DNA of 64,000 nt, taken from the IMG/VR virus record IMGVR_UViG_3300042975_000098, one strand, 5' to 3'. Each line of letters begins with the position of its first letter. The stretch's first letter is position 1. This DNA is from a virus. The position numbers were made by a program, and so were the translations under genes. The notes below the pieces were generated by a model. The model worked only from the letters and a program-made list of their open reading frames with translations, was not told the origin of the DNA and searched no databases. Positions 8,917 to 31,416 of the stretch are shown piece after piece.

Positions 8917-9031
8917 GCAGCATTCGTTCGTTGCGATCACGCAAGCCCCGGCCCCGTAAGGAATCCGGGGCTTGTTTAGTATATAATCGAATACGCATGA
9001 TTGGTGGCGGCTCCACGTCGCTGCCGATCGC

Positions 9032-9074
9032 CGACACGCCGGCGGTTGACATGATCCCATGATCGTGGTACGAT
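9032..9074 (+). promoter_or_regulatory. Sigma70-type promoter with upstream CGACACGCCGGCG motif
   Basis: TTGACA-17-TACGAT ahead of the first tRNA. Confidence 0.75.
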
Positions 9075-9105
9075 GGCTCATCGGTGACATACATAACTGA
9101 AGAAA

Positions 9106-9179
9106 CAGCGATTAGGAAAGCTTGGTAATCCGCCTGCCCTGGGAGCAGGAGACCGTGGGTTCGAATCCCGCATCGCTGA
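9106..9179 (+). tRNA. tRNA-Pro(TGG), C33
   Basis: CAGCGAT/ATCGCTG acceptor, CCTGC-ccTGGga-GCAGG, GGTTCGAATCC. Confidence 0.9.
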
Positions 9180-9200
9180 CGCGGCCCGTCATGTGGTCCG

Positions 9201-9242
9201 CGACACGCCGGCGGTTGACAACGCTGGCCGTCGCGGTATGAT
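9201..9242 (+). promoter_or_regulatory. Sigma70-type promoter with CGACACGCCGGCG motif
   Basis: TTGACA-16-TATGAT. Confidence 0.7.
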
Positions 9243-9668
9243 GGGGACATAACTTAACGACGAGGACCGGTTCGCACCGGTGGCGGAGAGCGCGCGACGG
9301 CGACGGTACCGGAATGTGAAAGAACTACCGTGTTTGGTCACGATGACCACCATGCCTCGTCAGGCGCGGTGAGCAGCGACGGAGCGCCTGAACACAGGAT
9401 CGAGCATGGGGAAGACAACGCCCTCAACGATCGCCGACGAAAGCCGACGAAGGATTACATATGTACTCCGGGCACGCGTTGATAACCCATGAACGGGACA
9501 CCAACGTCAATCGTGAAGCAATGACGGCCCGTAGCCATTAAACAAGCTTCTTCAGATGAACACATATGCAAGCATGATGCTGACGCAGGTCGTGCGCGCT
9601 GATCAAGATTCCGAGCAGTCGGATAGAAAAACATGCCGTCATGCCGGCGGACGTTAAACGCCGGTTAT

Positions 9669-9759
9669 TCCGTAGGGTTGACCTTTGTCGGTTGTCATGC
9701 GCGTGACTGTTAATCGAGCGTATCGAGAGACATCGCTGGTTCGATCCCAGCCTACGGAG
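9669..9759 (+). tRNA. Atypical 91-nt tRNA-Asn(GTT)-like gene
   Basis: TCCGTAG/CTACGGA acceptor, ctGTTaa loop, T arm; distorted D and variable regions. Confidence 0.5.
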
Positions 9760-9923
9760 CGTGAGCGGGGTGAGCACGATGGCCTGGGGGTCAGTAAAGA
9801 ATCCCCTCGCCGATTTTCTCACGACCCGGCGATGGATAAAGACAGAGCCATGGCCCCACCCGCAGTCCATCACATGTACACCTGAAGTCGGCTCATAGGA
9901 ATCATGATCGCCGACGATAGCAC

Positions 9924-9999
9924 ACGGGCATAGTTCATCGGTACAGAACATCACTCTGATACAGTGATAAGGGTAGTTCGACTCTACCTGCCCGTACCA
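9924..9999 (+). tRNA. tRNA-Ile(GAT), CCA encoded
   Basis: ACGGGCA/TGCCCGT, TCACT-ctGATac-AGTGA. Confidence 0.88.
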
Positions 10000-10077
10000 A
10001 AGCCGCCGGCGAGCATACGGTTCTCCGCGAGCGCTCGCCAGCGGCCTAGTCCTCATGATGACGTTAAAAGCATGAAC

Positions 10078-10151
10078 GCCTCTGTAGTTTAACCGGATTA
10101 AAATCACTGACTACGAATCACTAGTTCCGGGTTCGACTCCCGGCGGGGGCA
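10078..10151 (+). tRNA. tRNA-Arg(ACG)
   Basis: GCCTCTG/CGGGGGC, ctACGaa loop, T arm. Confidence 0.82.
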
Positions 10152-10263
10152 CGCAATCCAACAAGAATGTTGGCAGAGACCAGAAATAACGTGGTTAGCG
10201 GCAGACGACGAGGATCGGTTCTTCACGGACTATGGAGTGTTCGATTCCTCAGAGTCTGCCAAT

Positions 10264-10336
10264 GGCTGTGAAGCTCTACGGTTTGAGCACCTTCCCGTCG
10301 AGAAGGATGAAGCGGGTTCGACTCCCGGCATAGTCG
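10264..10336 (+). tRNA. tRNA-Asp(GTC), C33
   Basis: GGCTGTG/CATAGTC, CCTTC-ccGTCga-GAAGG. Confidence 0.85.
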
Positions 10337-10339
10337 CTT

Positions 10340-10451
10340 GTATCCGGCATCTATACTTCAGGAATGGCTCCTAGCCATTCCATGATGCCCGGTGAGAAAC
10401 ACATGGGGACGTGAAAACAGCACGAGAACATGCACGCCTCACCGTCTGTTT
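10340..10451 (+). ncRNA. Unclassified pseudoknotted structured RNA, copy 1
   Basis: Four stems covary with copy 2 (12413-12523); loop AAACAG complementary to 3' CTGTTT. Confidence 0.8.
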
Positions 10452-10538
10452 ACTTTACGGCGGTGATGTTACGACCAATGAGGCGGGCGAAAACTCATAA
10501 AGCATCTCACATGATGTCCGTTAAGCATCATTTCTTAT

Positions 10539-10609
10539 TCCCCTGTAGTTCAACGGCAGAACGAATGACTGTTAATCATTTAATGAAAGTTCGATTCTTT
10601 CTAGGGGAG
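10539..10609 (+). tRNA. tRNA-Asn(GTT)
   Basis: TCCCCTG/TAGGGGA, AATGA-ctGTTaa-TCATT. Confidence 0.9.
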
Positions 10610-10625
10610 CGTCAGCACACTCCGC

Positions 10626-11018
10626 ATGGAGAACCTGAAATGGGTCACTGGCAGCACGTACGGTTCAAAATGGAACCATTCCGCGCAGCAGGAAGCAATC
10701 GCGCACGCCACCGCCCGGATCGGCGTGACCACGAAACAGGTAAACCCAAAGAACACCTCGCAATCATGCTCACGATGCGGCGCCAGAATCACGCATGACA
10801 CGAGCAAGAGAACAATCCACTGCCCCGCATGCGACCTCACCATGGACAGGGATTATAACGCAGCAATCAACATCGCACACATCACGAGAACGCACCCCGC
10901 GAGTCATTACGGTAATCGCGGGGGTAAGTGTAGCGGACCGGATGGTCCGCAGCTTATGGGGCTGGGTGCTCCTGTGGGCGCGCTAGGAAGTGGTACTGTT
11001 ATAGGTATTGCAACTTAG
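10626..11018 (+). mobile_element. tnpB: IS200/IS605-family TnpB C-terminal remnant
   Basis: VNPKNTSQSCSRCG...CPACDLTMDRDYNAAINI zinc ribbon plus RuvC-III motif; N-terminal part absent. Confidence 0.85.
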
Positions 11019-11061
11019 TGCGTCACCGTATGATTACATAGTTAACAAGTAATCATCATAT

Positions 11062-11099
11062 TGTGGATTGGCAGAGCGGCAATTGCGGCTGACTGTAGA
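11062..11099 (+). pseudogene. 5' half of a tRNA-Tyr(GTA)
   Basis: GTGGATTGGCAGAGCGGC..TGCGGCTGACTGTAGA matches the 5' half of the Tyr tRNA at 13321; no T arm follows. Confidence 0.65.
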
Positions 11100-11156
11100 T
11101 GCGCTTTTACCACTGCGTGGATTGCTTGTCCTCATGATGACAATAAAAGCATGAAC

Positions 11157-11229
11157 GCCTCTATAGTTCAATTGGTAGAACACCGGACTTTTACTCCGGG
11201 TGTTGTCTGTTCGAGTCAGATTGGGGGCA
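11157..11229 (+). tRNA. tRNA-Lys(TTT)
   Basis: CCGGA-ctTTTac-TCCGG; GCCTCTA/TGGGGGC. Confidence 0.85.
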
Positions 11230-11548
11230 CGCAATCCATGTAGTTTTGGATTACATTCAAGACTTAAGTTCCTTGTTATTAGCGCAAAAATAAAAATACT
11301 ATATTACCGCGCGACATGCCGATTGAACGCAGATTTGCGCTCATGAGAACTTCGTGTTATGATAATAATCATTAACGCGCTGGTTGATAACATAATAGTG
11401 ATTAGTTGTGGGGCTTGTTCATCAGGTGTGTCGGTGATGATTTATACAGGTTCGATTCCTGTTACAAGCACGATGATCCACGGGTTCGGCTTGTTACCTG
11501 ACTCTTGTGTGGGTCACGTCGGGAGTCACTAACCCGACGTTAAACTCT

Positions 11549-11637
11549 GGTTGATTGGCCGAGCATGGTTTATGGCACCTGTCTTGAAAACAGGCGTGGG
11601 GCAACACCCACCGGGGGTTCGAATCCCTCATCAACCG
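11549..11637 (+). tRNA. tRNA-Ser(TGA)
   Basis: CCTGT-ctTGAaa-ACAGG, long variable arm, G73. Confidence 0.92.
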
Positions 11638-11749
11638 CGCAGTTCCAGTAGGCTTTGAGTTAGTCGCGTAGTTAACTACTACCATGGTTAGTTGTGACCG
11701 CTAACGAGCCGAACGCATATAGCAACCGAGCGGGTGCAAGGCCCGCGAT

Positions 11750-11823
11750 GCTTCCATAGCCCAATAGGTAGAGGCAGTAGATTTAGGATCTACTCAGTGC
11801 GGGTTCGACTCCTGCTGGAAGCA
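11750..11823 (+). tRNA. tRNA-Leu(TAG), short variable loop
   Basis: GCTTCCA/TGGAAGC, GTAGA-ttTAGga-TCTAC. Confidence 0.9.
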
Positions 11824-11826
11824 CAA

Positions 11827-11915
11827 TGTCTGAATCGCTTACCAGAAGAGGAGCAGCGGCCTAAAAGCCGTGCCGGCTCATTACCGACCCGTAGGGTGAG
11901 ACTCCCACCAGACAG
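11827..11915 (+). pseudogene. Degenerate class II tRNA-like gene (possibly Leu-derived)
   Basis: TGTCTG/CAGACA ends, GCGGC-ctaaaa-GCCGT 6-nt loop, variable arm, variant T loop TGAGACT; partial second copy after 12068. Confidence 0.4.
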
Positions 11916-11998
11916 GAACCAAGAAGCCATTATGACGATAATGCGCGGATTGGCTCACCCTTGCGTTATGATGATAACGTGTCGACATAACGCAAGGT

Positions 11999-12068
11999 GC
12001 TTCCATAGCCCAACAGGTAGAGGCGGCAAGGAACCGTTACAGTGCTGGTTCGAGTCCAGCTGGAAGCA
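11999..12068 (+). pseudogene. tRNA-Leu pseudogene with deletion in the anticodon arm
   Basis: Paralog of the 11750 and 14213 tRNAs; arm reduced to GGC-AAGGA-ACCGTT. Confidence 0.7.
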
Positions 12069-12213
12069 CGATGTCCGAATAGCTTGTGTCCGGTCATGCC
12101 AGCGGCCTACAAGCCGCTCCGGTTCATTACCGGTATACGTTCGCCGCCGATGACACATGCCGGCGAACTGGTCACCATTCATCTTGTTGCGTGGCCGCGA
12201 GCATGAAACCGCG

Positions 12214-12256
12214 CGACACGCCGGCGATTGAAAACGTTCAACCATTGTGGTATCTT
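12214..12256 (+). promoter_or_regulatory. Sigma70-type promoter with CGACACGCCGGCG motif
   Basis: TTGAAA-17-TATCTT with extended TG. Confidence 0.6.
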
Positions 12257-12340
12257 GTAATCATAGCGCAACGGGAGGAATGAACATGAGCACGGAAGCC
12301 TGAACAGCTGACCGATGAGCATTGATTGAATGCCACGGCA

Positions 12341-12409
12341 GTTCATGATTCCAATAGGGGAATCGTCGGCGGTAACGCTGACGAGCGGGTTCGAGTCCCG
12401 TCATGAACA
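12341..12409 (+). ncRNA. Anticodon-less tRNA-like RNA, copy 1 (69 nt)
   Basis: GTTCATG/CATGAAC acceptor, D-like hairpin, 8-bp stem with GGTAAC loop, canonical T arm. Confidence 0.75.
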
Positions 12410-12412
12410 CTA

Positions 12413-12523
12413 GTATCCGGTGTCCATACATAGAGTCGGCCCCTGGCCGGCTCACGACACCCGGTCGGAAACGCATGGGAGCATGAAAACAGCATGTGAG
12501 CATGAACGCCCGACCGTCTGTTT
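12413..12523 (+). ncRNA. Unclassified pseudoknotted structured RNA, copy 2
   Basis: Compensatory changes relative to 10340-10451. Confidence 0.8.
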
Positions 12524-12574
12524 CTTTTCCCGCGCGACGCAATGCGCGGGTCGCGTCCCCTAGGGGCGCGGGTG

Positions 12575-12643
12575 GTTCATGGTTCCGATAGGGGAATCGC
12601 CGGCGAAAGCACCGGCGAGCGGGTTCGAGTCCCGTCATGAACA
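12575..12643 (+). ncRNA. Anticodon-less tRNA-like RNA, copy 2 (69 nt)
   Basis: Same fold as 12341-12409; central stem capped by a GAAA tetraloop. Confidence 0.75.
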
Positions 12644-12968
12644 CTAGAGTCTGATTCGCTGTGGTGGCGATGAAAAAGCTCAAGACTCGATACGCAAGCA
12701 TGAATGCATAGAGCAATAGTTTCATGTAGCTGCTGGTGCTGCTTAAACAGGTCGCGGTAAACGAATAACCAGATGATTCACGGGCGGCATCCCGTGATGA
12801 CATGAAAAGCATGAGGCCAACCACCGATTGCTTCCTGTTCCCTACGTTAGTGGGGTCCTAGGATAGTGGCAAGATGGTGAAACCCCGTCGAGGAGCATGA
12901 GAGCGGATGACATGATTAATCATTCGCGTGGCAGGAATCTAAAACCCTGCCACCTATGCTCCGTTTAT

Positions 12969-13042
12969 GCTTCTATGGCTCAATTGGTTAAAGCAACTGA
13001 CTCTTAATCAGTGGATTTCGGGTTCGAGTCCCGATGGAAGCA
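12969..13042 (+). tRNA. tRNA-Lys(CTT)
   Basis: ACTGA-ctCTTaa-TCAGT. Confidence 0.92.
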
Positions 13043-13065
13043 CGTATCAACATATGTTGATATGT

Positions 13066-13211
13066 GGGGCGACCAAGGTGGTGAACAGCGGGAGTGGTTA
13101 ACCGTGAGAAACCATAGGTCAGCAGTGGTGGCGGGTTAACCGTCCGTCACTGAGAAAGCCCGTGCGCTGTCAAAGCGATACGGTATCACGGTTCGAATCC
13201 GTGGCGCTCCA
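13066..13211 (+). ncRNA. 146-nt tRNA-Ala-like / mini-tmRNA-like RNA
   Basis: GGGGCG.../CGCTCC-A acceptor with G3.U70 and A73, perfect T arm CACGG-TTCGAAT-CCGTG, large internal insert, no anticodon arm. Confidence 0.6.
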
Positions 13212-13320
13212 CTATGCCGGTGCCCTCCCATGTTCGCACAATACCATGGGTTCACATCGGCGATGCCGTGTGTACGACCGCGAGAGCGGGCGGATGCCGG
13301 GCATGGGTTCATGGATATTT

Positions 13321-13402
13321 GGTGGGTTGGCAGAGTTGGTCAAATGCGGTCGGCTGTAAACCGACTCCTACGGGTACGGGGGTTCGAATCCCTCACCCAC
13401 CA
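13321..13402 (+). tRNA. tRNA-Tyr(GTA)
   Basis: GTCGG-ctGTAaa-CCGAC, variable arm. Confidence 0.92.
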
Positions 13403-13519
13403 CGACGGGTACTGGCAGGCATCTTGGATATCGGGAATAGCCATAAGGTTGATTACCGGAAGCGATTTCCCGAAGCTCCGCCCCTCATCATGACGCCGAT
13501 TTGATCACTCATGATGTAT

Positions 13520-13590
13520 ACGCCTATGGTGCAGTGGCAGCACAAGAGCTTCCAAACCTCCTGATCTGGGTTCGATTCCTGGTGGGCGTG
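13520..13590 (+). tRNA. tRNA-Trp(CCA) (alternative reading Gly(TCC))
   Basis: A1-U72 and G73 favour Trp; anticodon stem has mismatches (AGAGC-ttCCAaa-CCTCC). Confidence 0.6.
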
Positions 13591-13595
13591 CGTAT

Positions 13596-13668
13596 GGTCC
13601 CATAGAGCAACGGTCACCTCGCCTGATTCTCAATCAGGAGATTCCGGGTTCGAATCCCGGTGGGACTA
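13596..13668 (+). tRNA. tRNA-Glu(CTC)
   Basis: CCTGA-ttCTCaa-TCAGG. Confidence 0.92.
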
Positions 13669-13832
13669 CTGGTCATCGGCAATACGCGAACGACGGGATA
13701 CCTGCCGCTCACGGTGCCAACGGGCGTTGGCGATGACATGGTTTGCTGGGAGCCGAAGACCAGCCGGTATGATGCCGCCGCGGAATCACCGCGAGCGACA
13801 CTGTTCATCGAATCTCCGTCAAGGATTCGAAT

Positions 13833-13905
13833 GGCCACGAGGTTCTACGGTTTGAACACCTGCCTGTCGAGCAGGACCAAGCGGGTTCGACTCCCGTCGT
13901 GGTCG
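13833..13905 (+). tRNA. tRNA-Asp(GTC)
   Basis: CCTGC-ctGTCga-GCAGG; paralog of 10264. Confidence 0.88.
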
Positions 13906-14078
13906 CGATCATCGTCATGCCGATGCCAAGCGCCGGCGACAATGAATCGCCGACACCGGTCGGCGATGGCAGTCGGGTTACTCCTCAAACGCGAACGGTT
14001 CGACTCCGAGCGCGAGCGAGTGGAACGCTGCCATCAACGCCGGCGGGCACGCACATGTCGCCATGCCCGTCGGCGTTC

Positions 14079-14152
14079 GCTCGTCTAGCCCAATCGGCAG
14101 AGGCGACGGTTTCAAAAGCCGTACAGTGCGGGTTCGAATCCCGCGGCGAGCA
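14079..14152 (+). tRNA. tRNA-Leu(CAA), short variable loop
   Basis: ACGGT-ttCAAaa-GCCGT. Confidence 0.9.
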
Positions 14153-14212
14153 CGCGCGTTGCCAACGAACGCCATCGATTGTCGAGCGATGGGGCGCCAT
14201 ACAGCGAGTCAA

Positions 14213-14285
14213 GCTTCCGTAGCCCAACGGCAGAGGCAGTGGTCTAAGGAACCACACAGTGCGAGTTCGAGTCTCGCCGGGAGCA
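14213..14285 (+). tRNA. tRNA-Leu(AAG), A34
   Basis: GTGGT-ctAAGga-ACCAC. Confidence 0.88.
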
Positions 14286-14286
14286 C

Positions 14287-14426
14287 GATGACGGAGGTGA
14301 TGATCGGGGTTACTTCTCATGTTAAGGGGGAGGTTCCGGGTTCGAATCCCGGTCGGTTGGCCTTGCGCCTTCCGGTAGCTCAACGGCAGAGCGCCAATAT
14401 TCCCCGGTCGGTTTTTACCCGTCATC
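14287..14426 (+). ncRNA. Circularly permuted tRNA-like / YrlA-like RNA, copy 1
   Basis: Outer stem enclosing, in order, anticodon-like hairpin, T arm, looped acceptor stem and D arm. Confidence 0.8.
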
Positions 14427-14431
14427 AACAT

Positions 14432-14518
14432 GGTCGGTTGTCCGAGTCCGGTTTAAGGAACCTGTCCAGAAAACAGGCATGGCCGACGCCATCGGGGGTT
14501 CGAATCCCTCACCGACCG
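14432..14518 (+). tRNA. tRNA-Ser(AGA), A34, C33
   Basis: CCTGT-ccAGAaa-ACAGG, long variable arm, G73. Confidence 0.88.
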
Positions 14519-14985
14519 CGCGCCGTTGATAATCGCTCATCATGTGGTATAAATAGACGCTGATGTTTTGTACGTAATGGTATAATACATCACGCATTGA
14601 TGCGAGGAATCGTGTCAATACGCAGCGTGATGGTAATGAGCAGCGTAACTCCTCGACTCATGACGGTGAATCAATTATTAGCGTCCCCAGCACGATTAAC
14701 GCTGGTTAGATGCAAGACACCGCCGAGGAGGGATTACTACTTACTACTCACCGCGTCATGCAACCGGGATGGCGGCTCTCGCCTCCTACCCGGTAGAGGG
14801 TACTGCAGTGCACCCAGTGAGGCGCGAGCCTCACGAACACTAAGCGTAGCGCAATTTGTACTATCGCTTAATAACTGTTATACTCATGATGGGCGACGAT
14901 CAACGCCCGATGTTCCCCACGCTAACGGGGGTTCATCACGTTGCAGTTCCAGCTGTATCTATCCCCCACGCAAATGGGGGTGTAC

Positions 14986-15059
14986 GCTTCCATAGCTCAA
15001 TTGGTTAGAGCATCCGCCTCTTAAGCGGAGGGTTGTGGGTCCGAGTCCCACTGGGAGCA
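14986..15059 (+). tRNA. tRNA-Lys(CTT)
   Basis: TCCGC-ctCTTaa-GCGGA; T loop TCCGAGT. Confidence 0.88.
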
Positions 15060-15060
15060 C

Positions 15061-15261
15061 GATGACGGAGGTGATGATCGAGGTTACTTCCATGATAAGG
15101 GGAGGTTCCGGGTTCGAATCTCGGCCGGTCGGCCTTAGCCGGTCGCCGGCTTGCTTGGCGGTTCTCGCTTCGCGGTTCGAATCCCGGTCGGTTGGCCTTG
15201 CGCCTTCCGGTAGCTCAATGGTTAGAGCGCCCTAACCCTCGATCGGTTTTTACCCGTCATC
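15061..15261 (+). ncRNA. Circularly permuted tRNA-like / YrlA-like RNA, copy 2, with internal duplication
   Basis: Same ends as copy 1 with compensatory change in the outer stem (GATCGAGG/CCTCGATC); two T-arm motifs. Confidence 0.75.
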
Positions 15262-15266
15262 AACAC

Positions 15267-15355
15267 GGTCGGTTGTCCGAGTCCGGTTTAAGGAGCCTGC
15301 TTCGAATACAGGTGTGGCCGCAAGACCACCGGGGGTTCGAATCCCTCACCGACCG
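15267..15355 (+). tRNA. tRNA-Ser(CGA)
   Basis: CCTGC-ttCGAat-ACAGG; paralog of 14432. Confidence 0.88.
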
Positions 15356-15405
15356 CTAGCGGTGCGCCATCGATCGATGCCCGCGCCGCCGATATCGCCG
15401 TCAAC

Positions 15406-15479
15406 GGGGGTTTAGCTCAGTCGGTTAGAGCAAACGACTCATAATCGTTCGGTCCAGGGTTCAAGCCCCTGAATCCCCA
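15406..15479 (+). tRNA. tRNA-Met/Ile2(CAT)
   Basis: AACGA-ctCATaa-TCGTT; elongator-type. Confidence 0.88.
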
Positions 15480-15496
15480 CACGTGGTATGTATCTT

Positions 15497-15570
15497 GTCG
15501 ACGTAGCTCAGATGGCCAGAGCGCCGAGTCGAAGCCTCGGAGGTCGTTCGTTCGATGCGAACCGTCGACA
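15497..15570 (+). tRNA. tRNA-Phe(GAA), C33
   Basis: CCGAG-tcGAAgc-CTCGG; GTCGACG/CGTCGAC. Confidence 0.85.
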
Positions 15571-15628
15571 CTGGGGAGCGGTCAGCCGCTCCAGCCCGCG
15601 ATCGGCATCAGTCGAGGGCATTAACCAT

Positions 15629-15711
15629 ATGTCGGCATCAGATTGGTGACTCAAGCGCTCTCCAAAAGCGTCGCCCCTCGGGGCTTGCAGGTTCGAATCC
15701 TGCCCGGCGTG
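15629..15711 (+). tRNA. tRNA-Trp(CCA) with long variable arm
   Basis: GCGCT-ctCCAaa-AGCGT, GCCCC/GGGGC variable stem, weak D arm. Confidence 0.65.
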
Positions 15712-15786
15712 CTCATTCCCCTGTTTGACTGATCGACGGCTCATAGTATGATGATGAGCAACTTGCCAATCAATCAGGGGGGGACA

Positions 15787-16350
15787 ATGAAACCGATCGT
15801 CTGCCATGGCGATATCACCACCATGAACGTGGATGCGATAGTCAACGCAGCCAACAGTGAGCTCGCGCGGGGCCGCGGCGTGTGCGGAGCCATTTTCGCC
15901 GCCGCCGGTGACGACGCCGGGCGATTACAGGACGAGTGCTTCTCGAAAGCGCCCGTACGCCCCGGCGGCGCCGTGCTGACGAAAGCTTACGGTCTGCCCG
16001 CGCGATTCATCATCCACGCGGTCGGCCCGGTGTACGACCCTGCCGACGCCGCCGGCAGCGAGCGGCTTCTCCGCTCAACGTATGATGCCGCGCTGGCGAT
16101 AGCCGACGAGCATCATATGGGCAGCGTCGCGTTCCCGCTGATATCCTCGGGGATCTACGGTTATCCTCATGATGACGCGCTGGCGATAGCGCTCGACGCG
16201 CTGGCAGGTCATCGCAATCGGAATGAACGGCATATGGATGTTTACCTTGTCCTGTTCGATTCCTCGCGCGAAGCCGTCCCATCATGGTGGCGGCGCGCCA
16301 TCGGGAACGTCATCGCCTCCATACTCCAACGGCAGAGAGTGCGGGCCTAA
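15787..16350 (+). CDS. Macro domain protein (YmdB-like ADP-ribose hydrolase)
   Basis: GDIT, DAIVNAAN, GRGVCGAI, IIHAVGP, AFPLISSGIYGYP. Confidence 0.92.
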   Translation: MKPIVCHGDITTMNVDAIVNAANSELARGRGVCGAIFAAAGDDAGRLQDECFSKAPVRPGGAVLTKAYGLPARFIIHAVGPVYDPADAAGSERLLRSTYDAALAIADEHHMGSVAFPLISSGIYGYPHDDALAIALDALAGHRNRNERHMDVYLVLFDSSREAVPSWWRRAIGNVIASILQRQRVRA

Positions 16351-16387
16351 ACCCCGCTGGTTCCCGGTTCGAATCCGGGTGGGGGCA
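16315..16387 (+). tRNA. tRNA-Leu(TAA), C33; overlaps the 3' end of the macro gene
   Basis: GCGGG-ccTAAac-CCCGC; GCCTCCA/TGGGGGC. Confidence 0.82.
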
Positions 16388-16687
16388 CTTCGGTTAGTTC
16401 AATCGTCGCATTCGCGTCGCGATCCCAATCACTCGCTTCGCGGAGGTCGGCGCCAAGTCCTGACGGCGATTGGGAGCCATCAGGGATGAGGTAGAACGCC
16501 GGGAGCATATCCCGGAGATGTCGTGCGAATCGACGCCAATCACGTATGCGGTCGCGGCCATCGACGTCGCAGGCGCATCATTCGACTCCATGCGCTGGGC
16601 ATGGGACGGCCGCACAGGCCGTCAGCGGGTTCGACTCCCGGTCGGGTGACGATGGCGGGAGCGGGCGGTCGCTCCCGCCGTCATTTC

Positions 16688-16761
16688 GCGGACATAGCTT
16701 AGCTGGTTAAAGCGCGACCTTGCCAAGGTCGAGACCGCGGGTTCGAGTCCCGCTGTCCGCT
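16688..16761 (+). tRNA. tRNA-Gly(GCC)
   Basis: CGACC-ttGCCaa-GGTCG. Confidence 0.95.
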
Positions 16762-16817
16762 CGATGACGCACGCCGGAGACAATCATCGCCGGCACCGTC
16801 AGCATCAGTGTACGTTC

Positions 16818-16891
16818 GCTCACGTGGCGCAGCCGGTCAGCGCGCCTGCATCACACGCAGGAGGTCCGTGGTTCGATCCCACGCGCGAGCA
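16818..16891 (+). tRNA. tRNA-Val(CAC)
   Basis: CCTGC-atCACac-GCAGG. Confidence 0.9.
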
Positions 16892-16931
16892 CGACCACGG
16901 TCGATGACGATCATCGCCGACCGTTGGCAAT

Positions 16932-17002
16932 GCGGGTATGGCTTAATGGCAGAGCATCGTCCTTCCAAGTCGATCATGCGGGTTCGATTCCCGCTGCCCG
17001 CT
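16932..17002 (+). tRNA. tRNA-Gly(TCC)
   Basis: ctTCCaa loop, GCGGGTA/TGCCCGC, U73. Confidence 0.9.
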
Positions 17003-17149
17003 CGATGATCACCCGGAACCTGCGCTGCGGCCGCGTTCCGTTAGCGGCATGGGAACCTGGTGATCCATACCATGCACTGCGTCCCCGTTGGGCGGCAAGC
17101 GCCGCCCGCGCAGCATACCGACCGGAGCTCAGGGACGGCTCCGGTCACT

Positions 17150-17220
17150 GCGGATGTGGTTCAACGGCAGAACTGCGGCTTCCCAAGTCGCCGGCGCGGG
17201 TTCGACCCCCGCCATCCGCT
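17150..17220 (+). tRNA. tRNA-Gly(CCC)
   Basis: GCGGC-ttCCCaa-GTCGC. Confidence 0.92.
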
Positions 17221-17232
17221 CGCATCGGTCAT

Positions 17233-17305
17233 GCTCCCGTGGCCCAGTGGTCAGGGCGCCTCGCTTACACCGAGGACATCATGGGTTCGAATCCCATCGG
17301 GAGCA
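17233..17305 (+). tRNA. tRNA-Val(TAC)
   Basis: CCTCG-ctTACac-CGAGG. Confidence 0.92.
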
Positions 17306-17316
17306 CGATCGCTCAC

Positions 17317-17392
17317 GGGGATGTGGCTCAACAGGTAGGGCATCTCGCCAGCAACGAGAAGGCAGCGGGTTCGACCCCCGCCATCTCCACCA
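17317..17392 (+). tRNA. tRNA-Ala(AGC), A34, C33, CCA encoded
   Basis: G3.U70, TCTCG-ccAGCaa-CGAGA. Confidence 0.88.
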
Positions 17393-17510
17393 CGCCGACG
17401 ACCAGCCGTCGATCGAAACCGGTTCGATGGCGTTCGGCGTCATGTATGCGCGCCCGCGGGAATCACACCGTCCGCGCGCGCCCGCGATCGGCTACGGAAC
17501 CCGATCACAT

Positions 17511-17583
17511 GCCCGCATAGCTCAACCGGCAGAGCGGCGCTCTCGTAAAGCGCAGGTACGCGGTTCGACACCGCGTGCGGGCT
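17511..17583 (+). tRNA. tRNA-Thr(CGT)
   Basis: GCGCT-ctCGTaa-AGCGC. Confidence 0.92.
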
Positions 17584-17651
17584 CGATGGCATCGATGACA
17601 CGATGTCGTTCGCCATCGGCGGTCGGCTCCACGCCGGCCATCGATGGCATC

Positions 17652-17724
17652 GTCCGCGTGGCGCAGTTGGCAGCGCGCCTGCATGACCCGCAGGTGGTCC
17701 GTGGTTCGATTCCACGCGCGGACA
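17652..17724 (+). tRNA. tRNA-Val(GAC)
   Basis: CCTGC-atGACcc-GCAGG. Confidence 0.88.
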
Positions 17725-17760
17725 CTGCTCGGCGATGATTTCGCAGGTCGCCGAGAATAT

Positions 17761-17833
17761 CGTGGCGTAGCTCAGTTGGCAGAGCACCCGGCTCATAACC
17801 GGGAGGGGGATGGTTCGATCCCATCCGCCACGA
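17761..17833 (+). tRNA. tRNA-Met(CAT)
   Basis: CCCGG-ctCATaa-CCGGG; paired C1-G72. Confidence 0.88.
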
Positions 17834-17869
17834 CGACGCTCGCGGTCTAATCGTCGACCGTCAACACAC

Positions 17870-17942
17870 TGTCCGATGGTGAAACTGGCATCACGCCCGG
17901 CCCTGAACCGGGAGACTGCAGGTTCGAATCCTGCTCGGACAA
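17870..17942 (+). tRNA. tRNA-Gln(CTG), C33
   Basis: CCCGG-ccCTGaa-CCGGG; U1-A72. Confidence 0.88.
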
Positions 17943-17962
17943 CGACCTGGTATAATGCCAGC

Positions 17963-18391
17963 ATGGCTAACAAGAAGACGACGTTATCGTTGATCGCCGC
18001 GCTGGCGGCGGTCATCATCCTGTATTTCGTACCGCAGGGCGCGTCATACCTCACCTCGCACATAGGATTCCTTCGACCGGTGCAGACCGGTGTGGAATCC
18101 ACGAGCGCGTTGGCTCTGCGCAACGGCGTCATGGTCGGCAAGGCCACGCTGACGACGGACTCGCCCGGCAGCGGCAAGACGGTGACCGTGAACATGGAAC
18201 TGTACCGTAACGGCGGCAAGGTGCGCGAATGCTCGCAGGCGTCGTACCCGTTGTCATCATCGCGAACGAACGTCATCGTCAACTGCGGTATGGCCGACGG
18301 CGTGAAGGCCGGTCGCAGTGGCGGGTACACGGTCAAGGTCATCAAGGCCCGCGTGATATCGATGCCATCCGGTGACAGTAGCAATGATTAA
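17963..18391 (+). CDS. Hypothetical exported protein (leaderless)
   Basis: TATAAT-N6-ATG; N-terminal hydrophobic signal or anchor; two Cys. Confidence 0.75.
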   Translation: MANKKTTLSLIAALAAVIILYFVPQGASYLTSHIGFLRPVQTGVESTSALALRNGVMVGKATLTTDSPGSGKTVTVNMELYRNGGKVRECSQASYPLSSSRTNVIVNCGMADGVKAGRSGGYTVKVIKARVISMPSGDSSND

Positions 18392-18432
18392 CGACTTGCC
18401 GGCGCCGGTCATCGGCCGACGCCGGTTCCCTT

Positions 18433-18505
18433 GGGGATGTAGCTCAACTGGTAGAGCGCCTCGTCCGCAACGAGGAGGCAGTGGGTTCGACCCCCATCAT
18501 CTCCA
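18433..18505 (+). tRNA. tRNA-Ala(CGC), C33
   Basis: G3.U70, CCTCG-tcCGCaa-CGAGG. Confidence 0.88.
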
Positions 18506-18580
18506 CTCCGCCCGCATCCGAATGTTGATGCTGGCGGCGCGCCGCCAGCGAGGGCGCGAACGATGTGATATGATGTACTT

Positions 18581-18669
18581 GGATGGGATTGCAACTCGGT
18601 GAATGCTAATCGGTTTGCTAAACCGGTGCGGCCGCAAGACCGCCGTGGGTTCGACTCCCACCCCATCCG
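18581..18669 (+). tRNA. tRNA-Ser(GCT)
   Basis: ttGCTaa loop, long variable arm, G73. Confidence 0.88.
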
Positions 18670-18761
18670 CGGGCGCCTAACGCACAGAAGCGCCGTAACA
18701 ACCCGAGTGCATAGTCAGCAGCCGCGGGCGATGATGATCATCGCCGGCGATTGGTGGCACC

Positions 18762-18836
18762 GCCTTCGTAGCTCAACGGATTAGAGCACCGGTCCTCGGA
18801 ACCGGGTTGTAGTGGGTTCGACACCCACCGGGGGCA
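18762..18836 (+). tRNA. tRNA-Arg(TCG), C33
   Basis: CCGGT-ccTCGga-ACCGG. Confidence 0.87.
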
Positions 18837-18907
18837 CGTCGCGGGGCGGCCGACTGGTCGCACCCGATTGGCCGCGGTCGTCCGTTCGCTGGCGATCGCT
18901 GCCCATG

Positions 18908-18978
18908 TGGTCCATAGCTCAATGGCAGAGCGACGGCTTGTGGCGCCGTATATCCGGGTTCGATCCCCGGTGGTCCAA
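18908..18978 (+). tRNA. tRNA-His(GTG)
   Basis: ACGGC-ttGTGgc-GCCGT; G-1 present at 18907 but position 73 is A. Confidence 0.85.
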
Positions 18979-18980
18979 CT

Positions 18981-19054
18981 CGCGGGGTAGAGCAGTTCGG
19001 TAGCTCGCCGGCCTCATAAGCCGGAGGTCACGGGTTCGAATCCCGTCCCCGCCA
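18981..19054 (+). tRNA. Initiator-like tRNA-fMet(CAT)
   Basis: CGCGGGG start, unpaired C1, GAGC/GCTC D stem; anticodon stem GGC/GCC instead of GGG/CCC. Confidence 0.88.
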
Positions 19055-19085
19055 CGATAAGCCGGTTCGTCCGGCGATTCAACAT

Positions 19086-19156
19086 GCTGGGATAGCCAAG
19101 CGGCAGGGCGACGGTCTGCAAAACCGTACAGGCGGGTTCGACTCCCGTTCCCAGTT
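19086..19156 (+). tRNA. tRNA-Cys(GCA)
   Basis: ACGGT-ctGCAaa-ACCGT, U73. Confidence 0.92.
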
Positions 19157-19195
19157 CGGATGCGACCGTCGGCATCGTCGGCGATCACGTTCATT

Positions 19196-19266
19196 TGCCC
19201 ATTCGTCCATTGGCAGGACGGGAGCCTTTGGTGCTCCAGAAGGTGGTTCGATCCCATCATGGGCAG
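19196..19266 (+). tRNA. tRNA-Gln(TTG)
   Basis: GGAGC-ctTTGgt-GCTCC. Confidence 0.92.
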
Positions 19267-19267
19267 C

Positions 19268-19340
19268 GCGCCGGTAGCTCACTGGATAGAGCGCCCGTCT
19301 ACGGAGCGGGAGGTCGTGGGTTCGAATCCCACTCGGCGCA
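19268..19340 (+). tRNA. tRNA-Arg(ACG)
   Basis: CCCGT-ctACGga-GCGGG. Confidence 0.93.
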
Positions 19341-19485
19341 CTCGGGTTCATTTCGGAGCCACAAGTACTGGGTCGCCGAATGGCGGTAACGAGGGTCGGC
19401 ATCGGTTGCCGGCCGTTCGCTAGGATTCCTTTGTCGTGGTGAACCTGACCGCCCCGTCGAACCGATCGGCGGGGTCTTTCCTTAT

Positions 19486-19561
19486 GGTCCGGCGGTGTGC
19501 GGGGATTCGCGCATACGCGACCTTCAATCGCGTGGTTCGGGTTCGATTCCCGATCGGACTA
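19486..19561 (+). tRNA. tRNA-Glu(TTC), C33, atypical D arm
   Basis: CGCGA-ccTTCaa-TCGCG; GGTCCGG/TCGGACT. Confidence 0.75.
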
Positions 19562-19588
19562 CGATTTTCCATACGATATTAACCGCTC

Positions 19589-20152
19589 ATGACCGATGAG
19601 CAAGCAAACAGCGATGACGTTGACGATGCCGATGGCCTCTGGCCGTCGACCGCTGGCGACGGCGTTCCACCGGCGGTCACGGAGTCCATAGCCAAACACA
19701 AGGCGCTGGCGGTTACACGCCGGGGGCGGATGCGGTTCAGAAGATGCATGAGCACGTTGAAATGGAATCGCTGGTTCAGCACGCGCGACATCACACGCGC
19801 CTATGTCCGCAATGATGGTCGAACCCTGGTGTTCCTCAGCGTGATGTACGCCGGCGTCGGTCTCACGTCGCTCGTATGCGGGCACGGCGTCATCAGAATC
19901 GCGTTCAGCGTGGCATTCCTCCTTGGCGCTCCGGTGGCGTTCCTGCTGGGGCGGGGCTCGTTGGCGGCCGCGTGCGATACGGCCGATGACGCCACGCTCA
20001 TGGACATGGCGCTGAAGCTCGCATGGGCCACCACATGGGAGCGTCTTCGCATGCTCCGCGTCACCGGCGCCGGCGATGACGGGAGCGAACACGCCGCCGA
20101 TGGCATCAAGCCGCCGGCGGACGACGGGCGGCGGCGAGAACCGTTATCATGA
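19589..20152 (+). CDS. Hypothetical membrane protein
   Basis: Two hydrophobic segments; CGATATT-N8-ATG upstream. Confidence 0.65.
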   Translation: MTDEQANSDDVDDADGLWPSTAGDGVPPAVTESIAKHKALAVTRRGRMRFRRCMSTLKWNRWFSTRDITRAYVRNDGRTLVFLSVMYAGVGLTSLVCGHGVIRIAFSVAFLLGAPVAFLLGRGSLAAACDTADDATLMDMALKLAWATTWERLRMLRVTGAGDDGSEHAADGIKPPADDGRRREPLS

Positions 20153-20246
20153 TGCGATCGGCGGCGACACGCCGGCGGAATCGATGTCGATATTCGTGGT
20201 ATACTTCTGTATGGTCGCGGGAACGTGATCATTGATAATCGAACAG

Positions 20247-20320
20247 GCCCGTGTAGCTCATCTGGATAGAGCGTTTTCCCCCTAAGAAAAAGGCAGTCGG
20301 TTCGAGTCCGACCGCGGGCA
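20247..20320 (+). tRNA. tRNA-Arg(CCT), C33
   Basis: TTTTC-ccCCTaa-GAAAA. Confidence 0.87.
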
Positions 20321-20391
20321 CGATTACGGTGGCGACACCGTGATCAACGTCGGCGCGGGTCCGCCCTTCATGGGCACCCCGTCGGCACCTC

Positions 20392-20465
20392 GCCTCCGTG
20401 GCCTAACTGGATAAGGTTGTGAGCCTCTACCTCACCGATTGTGGGTTCGAGTCCCACCGGGGGCA
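20392..20465 (+). tRNA. tRNA-Arg(TCT), C33
   Basis: GTGAG-ccTCTac-CTCAC. Confidence 0.87.
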
Positions 20466-20505
20466 CAGTGATTTGCGGATCATCGTCATTCAGGAGACCC
20501 GCAAC

Positions 20506-20576
20506 GCCCGATTAGCTCAATGGGAGAGCAACCGCCCTGTAAGCGGTGGACGTCGGTTCGATACCGGCATCGGGCT
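20506..20576 (+). tRNA. tRNA-Thr(TGT), C33
   Basis: ACCGC-ccTGTaa-GCGGT. Confidence 0.87.
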
Positions 20577-20781
20577 CGTGGACGGCGTGAACGTGATGCG
20601 CCCCGTGGTACCCGGGGAGCGCGATCGCGATCGCCGTCAACATGGGGGTTGACAGGCCGGATGCGTTGTCGAACGTTACTTCTTGCAACGAAAAAACACG
20701 TTCGACGGGTTTTTCACCGGCACGACCCCAACGCATAAGCCATCGATCGGCAGCGAGAGCCACCGATCGACGGCCGTCCCT

Positions 20782-20820
20782 GACCCGCGCGGACCTCATC
20801 GTCCGCGCGGGTCTTTTTTA
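20782..20820 (+). terminator. Intrinsic terminator closing the tRNA array
   Basis: GACCCGCGCGGAC/GTCCGCGCGGGTC 13-bp stem followed by a T tract. Confidence 0.9.
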
Positions 20821-21029
20821 TTGCACTGGCGACTGGAACCCACCGGTACCGTTCGATGGAGGCGAGTTTCCAAGTATGAGCCGACTGGAAGCGTTCCATA
20901 CGAACTCGCTCGGCGCTTGGGGGTCCGCTATGGGCGTGACCGGTCGGCGATCGCCCGCGGCCCATGTATCATGGAACCTACGGGTTCCCTATATTCACAG
21001 TACGAGCAACGGGCCAGGGAGGATTCGAC

Positions 21030-25730: not shown

Positions 25731-25805
25731 GCAGTATGACATCCACGCCCCCGACATCTGTTAGATGACTGTCGTAACAGAGAACGGGCAGGATCGGAGC
25801 ATGTG

Positions 25806-26495
25806 ATGCCAACGGAAGCGAAGGCCGTATACGGTCGTGAACCTGACGGTACGTACTCACGATGCCGGGCACGGCCCGAGAACATGGGGACCGGGCGCTG
25901 CCATCATCGACCGGGGCCGTCCATGGGCGTGAACGCGGCGGCGCATCTGAGCATGACGGCGAACGAGGTGAACGCGCTTAACGAGCGGGTGATCGCATGG
26001 AACCATGATTCCGGCGCGTCCGCGCTGACGAAGGTCCGGGGCGGTCGCGGGCGATCGGGCGCGAGGTCCGCGGGCGGCGACATGGCCATGCGGATGATCA
26101 TGGCGAAGATGGGGTACCGCGCGGACGGTGACGGCGATAGCCGACCGGTCGGCGACGCGATCGAGCGCACTCGCCGGTTCCGCGGCGCCGATGGCAGGAT
26201 CGCCATCACCACGGTCGAGCGTGACGGCGGCGTCGTCGGCGCCTATCATGACGCGGTGATCGGCGGGACGGTCGTGTCGACGGAGCTTGACGCCCGGCAG
26301 ATGGATGACGCGACGGCGGCGCGAGTGCTGACGAACTCGATCAGGGCCGCGAGAAGGACCGACGCGAAGCGCATGGACGTGAGCGTCGCCCATGACGGCG
26401 ATGACCCGCTGGCGTCCGAGGGCGATATCGTCATCGGCTATGGCGACGCCGCGGGGCGTATCACCGACATCGACGTCATCCGCGCCCGGGACTGA
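25806..26495 (+). CDS. Hypothetical protein with Cys/His leader, copy 1
   Basis: DGTYSRCRARPENMGTGRCHH motif. Confidence 0.7.
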   Translation: MPTEAKAVYGREPDGTYSRCRARPENMGTGRCHHRPGPSMGVNAAAHLSMTANEVNALNERVIAWNHDSGASALTKVRGGRGRSGARSAGGDMAMRMIMAKMGYRADGDGDSRPVGDAIERTRRFRGADGRIAITTVERDGGVVGAYHDAVIGGTVVSTELDARQMDDATAARVLTNSIRAARRTDAKRMDVSVAHDGDDPLASEGDIVIGYGDAAGRITDIDVIRARD

Positions 26496-26531
26496 CGATA
26501 TTGCCCACGCGATCCACGGGAGGGCAATCAC

Positions 26532-26858
26532 ATGAGTACCATCAGCGACACCACGAGAAGCAGGGCCATGACCATCCACGACATGGTGATGGGCATGGGG
26601 CTGCCGGAACCGGACGTCCACGCCACGCGCGTGGGCACCGCGGTCGTAAGCTCCATCGGCGATGATTCCATCGGGTTCATCGAGTTCGATGACGTGGCCG
26701 GCGCCTCGTACCATAAGGACCCGCATGTGCCGGTCATCGACCCGATGAACGCCGACGAGGGATTCAGGAACGCGGACATAGCCGATTTCGACCCGGCGTC
26801 ATTCACGCAGGACGAGATCAGGGCCGTGTTCACCGCCGCCGACACGCCGGCGGAGTAG
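26532..26858 (+). CDS. Hypothetical acidic protein, copy 1
   Basis: GGAGGG RBS; acidic ORF. Confidence 0.7.
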   Translation: MSTISDTTRSRAMTIHDMVMGMGLPEPDVHATRVGTAVVSSIGDDSIGFIEFDDVAGASYHKDPHVPVIDPMNADEGFRNADIADFDPASFTQDEIRAVFTAADTPAE

Positions 26859-26890
26859 ATCGTCCGCCCCTGACGGTATCATTGGTGATC

Positions 26891-27361
26891 ATGAGAATAC
26901 TAGTGACCGGAAGCCGATACCGCCCGGGGGTCGACGTGCGCAACGTGCTCGACCGTTATCGTGGCGTGGCCACCGAGATCGTCGTGGGAAGCTCCACCGG
27001 GGCCGACGCGGCGGCCAGGGCGTGGGCGCGCGCGAACGGGGTGCCGTGCAAGACGTTCCAGAGTGATGACGAGCATAATCATCTCATCGGGTTCAGCAAG
27101 GACGCCATGGACGAGAAGCCCGACCTATGCCTTGCGTTCCCCATCGGGAACTCGCGTGGAACGATCACGGCGATAGAGATGATGCGCAGATCGGGAACGC
27201 CCGTCACCGTCATCCCGGAGTTCGATAACGAGGACTTCGACCGTAAGCATGACGGCGCGGTCATCATGGCGGCGCCGAGCGACGGCGAACTGATGAGGGT
27301 CACGCTCGACAAGACCGTGGAAATCTACGACAAGGGCATCAGGGAGCTGGCGGACCTATGA
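26891..27361 (+). CDS. SLOG-family (DUF2493/YspA-like) protein with antitoxin-like C-terminal tail, copy 1
   Basis: MRILVTGSR, GADAAARAWA, CLAFP.GNSRGT; tail EIYDKGIRELA. Confidence 0.75.
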   Translation: MRILVTGSRYRPGVDVRNVLDRYRGVATEIVVGSSTGADAAARAWARANGVPCKTFQSDDEHNHLIGFSKDAMDEKPDLCLAFPIGNSRGTITAIEMMRRSGTPVTVIPEFDNEDFDRKHDGAVIMAAPSDGELMRVTLDKTVEIYDKGIRELADL

Positions 27362-30255: not shown

Positions 30256-30330
30256 GCAGTATGACATCCACGCACCCGACATCTGTTAGATGACTGTCGT
30301 AACAGAGAACGGGCAGGATCGGAGCATGTG

Positions 30331-31020: not shown

Positions 31021-31056
31021 CGATATTGCCCACGCGATCCACGGGAGGGCAATCAT

Positions 31057-31383: not shown

Positions 31384-31416
31384 ATCGTTCCGCCCCTGAC
31401 GGTATCATTGGTGATC

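Follow-up and report, generated by a model that had tools for sequence, protein, structure and literature searches.

A 64,000-nucleotide stretch of viral DNA, IMG/VR record IMGVR_UViG_3300042975_000098 (hereafter the window, meaning the whole 64-kb stretch analysed), carries two copies of an element of about 112 bases. The element is a genuine structured RNA, strongly supported, absent from catalogues and narrowly distributed. Both copies, A and B, lie within an array of tRNA genes, on the same (+) strand as the tRNAs. We tentatively propose, with somewhat less than even confidence, that the element is a small non-coding RNA gene whose product RNase Z and RNase P would release from a tRNA precursor.

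Across the full length of the two copies, the alignment needs one indel, of 1 nucleotide (Table 1 gives coordinates); 83 of its 116 columns show the same base in both, and identity averages 86% per column. When each copy was folded alone, the minimum-free-energy structures agreed (-40.1 kcal/mol for copy A and -46.3 kcal/mol for copy B), with z-scores of -3.5 and -4.0, respectively, and none of 200 shuffled sequences was as stable. The fold common to both copies has five helices, P1 (6 bp), P2 (9 bp), P3 (7 bp), P4 (4 bp) and P5 (4 bp). Every cell of the 30 nested pairs is paired (100%); ten pairs have changed on both sides, none has been altered on one side only, and none is broken. In a control in which the 3' partners were slid by 1–3 columns, pairing was 29–43% and compensatory pairs numbered 0–1. 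The 33 columns that differ between the copies consist of 20 in the ten compensatory pairs and 13 in loops or flanks, with none in the candidate pseudoknots described below. By the criterion of sequence comparison, the five helices are proven by compensatory change. The original prediction, made by a reader of the DNA letters, had described copies aligning over their full length with at least eight compensatory pairs; the alignment holds as described, and pair counting raises the compensatory pairs to ten.

Natural variants of the locus were used as additional evidence for the fold. Public runs place the locus in bioreactor sludge, with 96–97% identical relatives in dust, fermentation and animal-gut samples; these runs are contigs, and show neither RNA ends nor abundance. 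A contig from a dust metagenome (X14) has seven changes within copy B, which we mapped onto the fold. A U.G pair in P2 is flipped to G.U (12436 and 12450), a C-G pair in P4 becomes U.G (12474), and a G.U pair becomes G-C at 12497, lengthening P5; the remaining three changes fall in internal-loop or junction nucleotides. The internal-loop purines vary (copy A, AGAA; copy B, UGAG; dust variant, CAAA), and about 20 unpaired nucleotides are unchanged across the three variants. A relative from a fermentation metagenome (X15) has 22 differences over 12200–12700, none of which falls in 12328–12556, a block made up of an anticodon-less tRNA mimic directly upstream of copy B (mimic 1), the element itself and the first hairpin downstream of it. 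The probability of such a gap under random placement of the differences is approximately 1e-6; as read from these substitutions, the block is under selection for its sequence. On the - strand, copy B gains no folding stability over shuffled sequence (z = -0.87). Because the G.U pairs occur only on the + strand, and because the - strand folds like shuffled sequence, the selected molecule is the + strand transcript. A contig from a gut metatranscriptome spans 12454–12553 together with a second tRNA mimic (mimic 2) downstream of copy B.

Two further complementarities, GUAU/AUAC and AAACAG/CUGUUU, are present in both copies and correspond to the two pseudoknots of the original prediction. All 20 of their columns are invariant between the copies, so covariation is no test of these pairings; the prediction stands as regards complementarity, both strands being present, but gains no support from covariation. 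None of the 20 pseudoknot columns has changed, compared with 20 of 60 stem columns and 13 of 36 columns in other loops (Fisher p = 0.002, each comparison). Domain 1, consisting of P1 and P2, probably forms an H-type pseudoknot with the 5' GUAU, in which GUAU/AUAC and P1 would be joined by a loop 1 of 2 nucleotides and a loop 2 of 1 nucleotide, with P2 lying inside loop 3. P1 and P3 abut with no linker, and are probably stacked on each other. In domain 2 (P3–P4–P5), the loop AAAACAG may pair with the 3' CUGUUU. Since a single U links P3 to the 3' tail, pairing of the P5 loop (L5) with the tail would need P4–P5 to be folded back along P3, a demanding arrangement that is possible if the 5 x 5 internal loop turns sharply. 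Two segments are complementary to the UGUUU of the tail, L5 (AAACA) and the P3–P4 joint, J3/4 (AAAC, followed by A in copy A and G in copy B); on topological grounds, P3 and a pairing between the tail and J3/4 are mutually exclusive in this model.

The element was compared with known RNA families using Rfam 15. At gathering thresholds, the whole window yielded only tRNAs and transfer-messenger RNA (tmRNA). At E <= 10, no match for the element was found in a search of 9000–21000, and searches with 146–148 nucleotides around each copy gave only chance-level scores to small nucleolar RNA, microRNA and long non-coding RNA models. Models for the hammerhead, twister, twister-sister, pistol, hairpin and glmS ribozymes gave no match at E <= 10, and neither did riboswitch models of all Rfam classes, including preQ1-I/II/III, ZTP and SAM-II/V. 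No credible open reading frame (ORF) overlapping or downstream of either copy was found in a check of ORFs, and a terminator scan of the + strand called no terminator 3' of either copy. The original description of an unclassified RNA is in keeping with this lack of any family match even at E <= 10 on the elements alone, and its statement that the topology is unlike hepatitis delta virus (HDV), hammerhead, twister and pistol ribozymes agrees with the HDV helix order given below and with covariance models that returned no score. A riboswitch, which had been offered as one possible function, found no support: there is no Rfam score, neither copy is followed by a gene or expression platform, and with nothing regulatable downstream this function is unlikely.

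Several ribozymes share features with the element and were considered individually. HDV-like theta ribozymes of gut phages are linked to tRNAs and have been proposed to take part in the processing of tRNA trailers (Kienbeck et al., 2024; PMC10879173). The element also lies directly behind phage-type tRNA genes, mostly without an encoded CCA. Its order, however, is pseudoknot (PK)(5')–P1(5')–PK(3')–P2 hairpin–P1(3'), followed by P3–P5, whereas HDV is a nested double pseudoknot ordered P1–P2–P3–P1'–P1.1–P4–P2' and cleaved 5' of the first P1 nucleotide; by eye, the element has no P3/L3 hairpin between the strands and no P1.1. HDV has a conserved catalytic C in J4/2, where the equivalent joint of the element reads AU in copy A and AC in copy B, and the element is about twice the length of theta or HDV-like ribozymes, with a second domain of three helices. 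An HDV-like or theta identity was rejected on account of the wrong helix order, the missing J4/2 C and the absence of a family model match at E <= 10. Hatchet and HDV ribozymes cleave at their very 5' ends (PMC6561176). Hatchet resembles the element in outline, with a hairpin at the 5' end and then a long one interrupted by two internal loops; in hatchet the helical stacks are parallel (PMC6561176; PMC4604424). Hatchet has P1 at +1, a conserved three-nucleotide P1–P2 linker, a conserved L2 and UGGG, GCAG and AAA segments, whereas the element has a 6-nucleotide 5' leader, no P1–P3 linker and other conserved nucleotides; hatchet was rejected by its published description (PMC6561176) and by the absence of an Rfam hatchet score at E <= 10. 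The hammerhead was also rejected, a CUGAUGA-like string of copy A not being kept in copy B. Strings in copy A (AAACAG/CUGUUU, GUC before CUGUUU, AGAA and GAGAAACACA) are reminiscent of the sTRSV-type hairpin ribozyme; as a lead only, we liken them to parts of this satellite-RNA ribozyme, namely helix 1, the cleavage-site triplet, loop A and loop B. The hairpin ribozyme was rejected because its strands are connected differently, which makes its two-domain topology impossible to draw for the element, because AGAA is not kept (copy B has UGAG, the dust variant CAAA), and because there is no Rfam score.

To delimit the distribution of the element, a covariance model built from it (R1) was used as the filter for homologues. 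Over the window, R1 scored the two copies at 142 and 138 bits and detected no third. R1-filtered pattern scans of IMG/VR (n = 3), JGI metagenome contigs and GTDB genomes gave chance matches and no homologue, blastn against GenBank phages and PLSDB plasmids likewise gave no homologue, and Pseudomonas phage PaP3 did not match R1. A covariance-model search of metagenomes had been put forward with the original prediction; applied to these pattern-selected loci, R1 yielded no homologue. A protein-database search with a spurious ORF across copy B retrieved only L161, a record of the same strain with identical copies. Relatives of the replicon were found through its dnaX-like clamp loader and a 558-amino-acid protein downstream of the array. 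The element is lacking from a syntenic relative, L108 (52% identity, 38 tRNAs), from L111 and L112 (dnaX 98% identical, 33 tRNAs), and from a 420-kb IMG/VR record, an 828-kb contig and L162. In comparison with L111, copy A lies in a replaced segment (9644–11467) and copy B in a 1.2-kb insertion (11825–13018). Since a relative with a 98% identical dnaX has 33 tRNAs without the element, and since both copies are in strain-variable segments, the element is, as judged from these genomes, dispensable for the array. The array is also rearranged among strains with a 98% identical clamp loader (L111 counterpart, 12192–12872), and in L111 it holds a resolvase gene followed by a 500-amino-acid ORF.

The immediate surroundings of the two copies are alike at the 5' side. 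Copy A starts at G10340, after the discriminator base G10336 of a tRNA-Asp and the trinucleotide CTT; copy B starts at G12413, after the discriminator A12409 of mimic 1 and CTA. Both copies therefore begin at +4, with 3 nucleotides between, exactly as first predicted. In alignments with element-free paralogues, similarity ends within 1–2 nucleotides of the first base of the element, with breakpoints between CTTGT and ATCC relative to the L111 tRNA-Asp trailer and between CTAG and TATCC relative to the trailer of mimic 2. Because similarity to paralogues stops at its edge, the element behaves as a discrete module located 3–5 nucleotides after the discriminator. Only 2 of approximately 47 tRNA-type genes in the window carry it, and both are atypical, one being a weakly scoring tRNA-Asp paralogue and the other an anticodon-less mimic. 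Mimic 1 (69 nucleotides) comprises an acceptor stem of 7 bp, a D arm and a T arm of canonical form, and the position of the anticodon arm is taken by a 9-bp stem with a GUAA cap; in the natural variant A12381G this central stem is still paired, as U.G. Mimic 2, also of 69 nucleotides and 88% identical to mimic 1, has no element attached. A GNRA-capped 9-bp stem occupies the anticodon-arm position of both mimics. In X14, mimic 2 is joined to the 3' end of tRNA-Lys(CTT).

A promoter-like module lies 85 nucleotides upstream of mimic 1 and repeats modules at 9030 and 9199 that head the array. The three occurrences (9030–9054, 9199–9223 and 12212–12236) have the form CGCGACACGCCGGCG(G/A)TTGA(C/A)A and split the array into putative transcription units. 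Of the two GC-rich hairpins between copy B and mimic 2, that at 12529–12550 falls within the substitution-free block of X15, and the second is variable. Copy A is separated from the next tRNA, tRNA-Asn, by 87 poorly structured nucleotides.

Table 1. Element copies and flanking features (window coordinates; nucleotides paired with each other are separated by a slash).
Feature	Coordinates	Strand	Basis or remark
Element copy A	10340..10451	+	Fold, alignment, pair counts, covariance model R1 (142 bits)
Copy A, P1	10346-10351/10384-10389		
Copy A, P2	10361-10369/10373-10381		
Copy A, P3	10390-10396/10438-10444		
Copy A, P4	10402-10405/10429-10432		
Copy A, P5	10410-10413/10421-10424		
Copy A, candidate pseudoknots	10340-10343/10353-10356; 10415-10420/10446-10451		
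Element copy B	12413..12523	+	Fold, alignment, R1 (138 bits), pair counts, natural variants
Copy B, P1	12419-12424/12456-12461		
Copy B, P2	12433-12441/12445-12453		
Copy B, P3	12462-12468/12510-12516		
Copy B, P4	12474-12477/12501-12504		
Copy B, P5	12482-12485/12493-12496		G12481.U12497 can extend P5
Copy B, candidate pseudoknots	12413-12416/12426-12429; 12487-12492/12518-12523		
tRNA-Asp(GTC), divergent paralogue, weak score	10264..10336	+	ARAGORN, Rfam (37.3 bits), paralogue alignment, fold
tRNA-Asn(GTT), next downstream of copy A	10539..10610	+	ARAGORN, Rfam
Promoter-like module (TTGAAA, 17 nt, TATCTT, upstream TG)	12212..12256	+	Consensus match; repeat families D6, D12
Anticodon-less tRNA mimic 1, directly upstream of copy B	12341..12409	+	Cloverleaf-like minimum-free-energy fold (z -5.4)
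Two GC-rich hairpins between copy B and mimic 2	12524..12574	+	Fold (z -3.7), variants
Anticodon-less tRNA mimic 2, 51 nt downstream of copy B	12575..12643	+	Repeat family D3, fold (z -4.1), weak tRNA-Sec-like Rfam score

RNase P and RNase Z recognize the acceptor stem, the T arm and the GG of the D loop. The mimics retain all three features and have lost the anticodon loop. In the tentatively favoured reading, the element is a small RNA gene that would be transcribed together with the neighbouring tRNAs and whose product tRNA-processing enzymes would excise; the upstream tRNA or mimic would be the site of cleavage by RNase Z (or a comparable activity for trimming 3' ends), and the next tRNA or mimic downstream that of cleavage by RNase P. 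Copy B would then be a cassette of promoter, mimic 1, element and mimic 2, driven by the module at 12212, with the anticodon-less mimics serving only as cutting signals and the RNase P site of mimic 2 setting the 3' end of the RNA. Copy A would use real tRNAs (Asp and Asn) as its cutting signals, giving an excised RNA of 202 nucleotides (10337–10538). We further infer that the released two-domain RNA may work in trans, its invariant unpaired segments engaging a protein or another RNA. There are precedents for parts of this scheme. Species 1 and 2 of phage T4 (rnaC and rnaD) are stable non-tRNA RNAs of about 120–140 nucleotides that are encoded in the T4 tRNA cluster and matured from a tRNA precursor. 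The element is likewise a structured non-tRNA RNA between tRNA genes of the same strand, although the T4 species are not known to be flanked by anticodon-less tRNA mimics. In MALAT1/mascRNA and in engineered tRNA-guide RNA arrays, non-decoding tRNA shapes recruit RNase P or RNase Z to set RNA ends; those systems are eukaryotic or synthetic, and for the present element such processing is a proposal.

Several points weigh against excision as a small RNA gene. The public runs with the locus are contigs in which RNA ends are not visible, and action in trans is a placeholder. Because there are only two independent members, the arrangement of a promoter with bracketing mimics has been seen once. The identical 3-nucleotide spacing from two different tRNAs would not be required by excision, and would fit a cis-acting function or site-specific insertion at least as well. 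A cis-acting function of this kind could be self-cleavage, one of the functions first proposed: the element may represent a new ribozyme class, with a double-pseudoknot, two-domain fold unrelated to HDV or hatchet, that cuts at its own 5' edge. A cut between +3 and G+4 would free the tRNA or mimic with a 3-nucleotide trailer for exonuclease trimming and CCA addition, and the array tRNAs nearly all lack an encoded CCA. The exact +4 start despite different upstream RNAs, the compact architecture with two candidate pseudoknots and about 20 invariant unpaired nucleotides, and the stronger conservation of pseudoknot columns than of stems or other loops (p = 0.002) are all consistent with a ribozyme, for which tRNA-linked theta ribozymes (PMC10879173) and cleavage at the extreme 5' end by HDV and hatchet (PMC6561176) provide precedents. 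Excision and self-cleavage are the two readings that fit, but we consider the latter rather unlikely: no known ribozyme model matches at E <= 10, the helix order is unlike that of HDV or hatchet, the internal-loop purines are not constant, the element follows just two tRNA-type genes, both atypical, and relatives mature 33–38 tRNAs without it. The promoter-like module and flanking mimics of copy B appear to point to a small RNA gene at least as well. The constant spacing could also arise if the mimic, or tRNA-Asp, stayed joined to the element in a composite RNA of about 185 nucleotides, whose tRNA-like head would bind a tRNA-recognizing protein and whose tail would be pseudoknotted, by analogy with tmRNA, YrlA-type Y RNAs and viral tRNA-like structures. 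The substitution-free block of X15, which takes in mimic 1 and the element together, would be expected of such a molecule, and the array has other tRNA-derived RNAs, including a sub-threshold match to YrlA (bacterial Y RNA-like) at 14306–14424 (28.6 bits, where the gathering score is 69; the ORFs scanned in the window included no Ro60/Rsr gene). The likeness of the copies may also take in the T arm and the first part of the acceptor 3' strand (repeat family D10, 78% over 46 nucleotides), but such T-arm similarity is expected for any pair of tRNAs. Mimic 2, moreover, occurs without the element, and the mimics have everything that would normally lead RNase Z to cut after the discriminator; a composite RNA thus seems rather doubtful, somewhat more so than a ribozyme.

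Regulation in cis of the downstream tRNAs, by a switch or attenuator, is improbable. P3 and the U-rich tail would act as a terminator-like hairpin, the 7-bp GC-rich P3 being followed by UCUGUUUACUUU in copy A and UCUGUUUCUUUU in copy B, and alternative states would be offered by the tail, whose UGUUU could pair with L5 or with J3/4. However, the terminator scan of the + strand did not call this hairpin, its 'loop' is a structured insert of 41 nucleotides, no coding gene lies downstream, no riboswitch model scores, and pairing of the tail with J3/4 would exclude P3 on topological grounds. Least probable of all, and in our view very much so, is a non-autonomous mobile or recombination element that acts at the DNA level and targets the 3' flanks of tRNAs, its RNA structure being incidental. 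Both copies do lie in strain-variable segments, and similarity to element-free paralogues does end within 1–2 nucleotides of the element's start, but the ten compensatory changes, the five nested helices and the G.U pairs found only on the + strand indicate selection on a transcript; terminal inverted repeats and a target duplication are absent, and neither the window nor the relatives contain extra copies. The C-terminal fragment of a foreign TnpB/Cas12f-like nuclease lies within the array 170 nucleotides downstream of copy A (a 130-amino-acid ORF, 10626–11018), and might suggest mobility. In runs from dust, fermentation and whole organisms, the 420-nucleotide TnpB segment (10610–11030) is flanked by other sequences, and copy B has no such segment nearby. 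Occurring in such unrelated contexts, the segment is a separate mobile remnant of a widespread insertion sequence element, and on these grounds we rejected any connection of the RNA element with the TnpB fragment or with a guide RNA of that fragment.

The window contains 45 tRNA genes, all on the + strand (9106–20577), and a tmRNA gene (35017–35378). At nearly all tRNA 3' ends in 9106–20577, a C follows directly after the discriminator and the next base is not C; CCA is encoded in two. This pattern implies that C74 alone has been kept across the array. A repeated leader, TCCTCATGATGAC..AAAAGCATGAAC, occurs at 10046–10092 and 11125–11171, directly upstream of tRNA-Arg(ACG) and tRNA-Lys(TTT), and includes a C-box-like UGAUGA; a partial 20-nucleotide copy, TGATGACATGAAAAGCATGA, is found at 12795–12814, about 150 nucleotides upstream of tRNA-Lys(CTT). 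An 11-nucleotide match between the element and these leaders, GCATGAACGCC, was discounted, being approximately what is expected by chance in 64 kb. Just past the last tRNA, 20691–20814 gives weak matches to rsmX/Xoo2-like small RNAs (33 bits, below the gathering score).

The replicon itself encodes GyrA, a sigma-70 factor, an NAD-dependent ligase, a clamp loader, FtsH, RecG, PhoH-PIN, a plasmid-type replicase, a DNA methylase and a dCMP deaminase. Megablast of the window found no match among GenBank phages and nothing beyond short chance-level matches of about 50 nucleotides among PLSDB plasmids, and a PHROGs search with ten large ORFs found no match. The sole viral link is one protein with a 47% identical relative in the 420-kb IMG/VR record, which has terminal repeats; more distant relatives of the clamp loader are on contigs of 0.6–0.8 Mb with huge-phage-like gene content. 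In view of the missing phage and PHROG matches and the single viral link, the replicon is described here as an uncultured giant phage-like or plasmid-like element, for which the label 'phage' appears weakly supported. An ORF pattern (230 amino acids, 159 amino acids, then thioredoxin-like) occurs at 25803–27361 and again at 30328–31887, an offset of 4.5 kb that suggests a tandem duplication. The FtsH-like gene (36348–38150) coincides with a trough of 47% GC (36001–38000) in a replicon of 63–66% GC, which suggests recent acquisition.

Folded RNAs continue to be found in the tRNA arrays of large phages and comparable elements, and the present one is unusually clean: it is short, with a sharply bounded invariant core at a fixed distance from a tRNA 3' end, and copy B has what appears to be a purpose-built expression cassette between tRNA mimics. 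It is a good and inexpensive candidate for tests both of ribozyme activity and of punctuation by tRNA mimics. If the ribozyme explanation were true, the element would be a new self-cleaving class that matures tRNAs or their mimics in a giant mobile element; if punctuation were true, elements that infect bacteria would use tRNA mimics to delimit RNAs that are not tRNAs. Either outcome would add to what is known of the RNA arsenals that mobile elements build and process beside their tRNAs.

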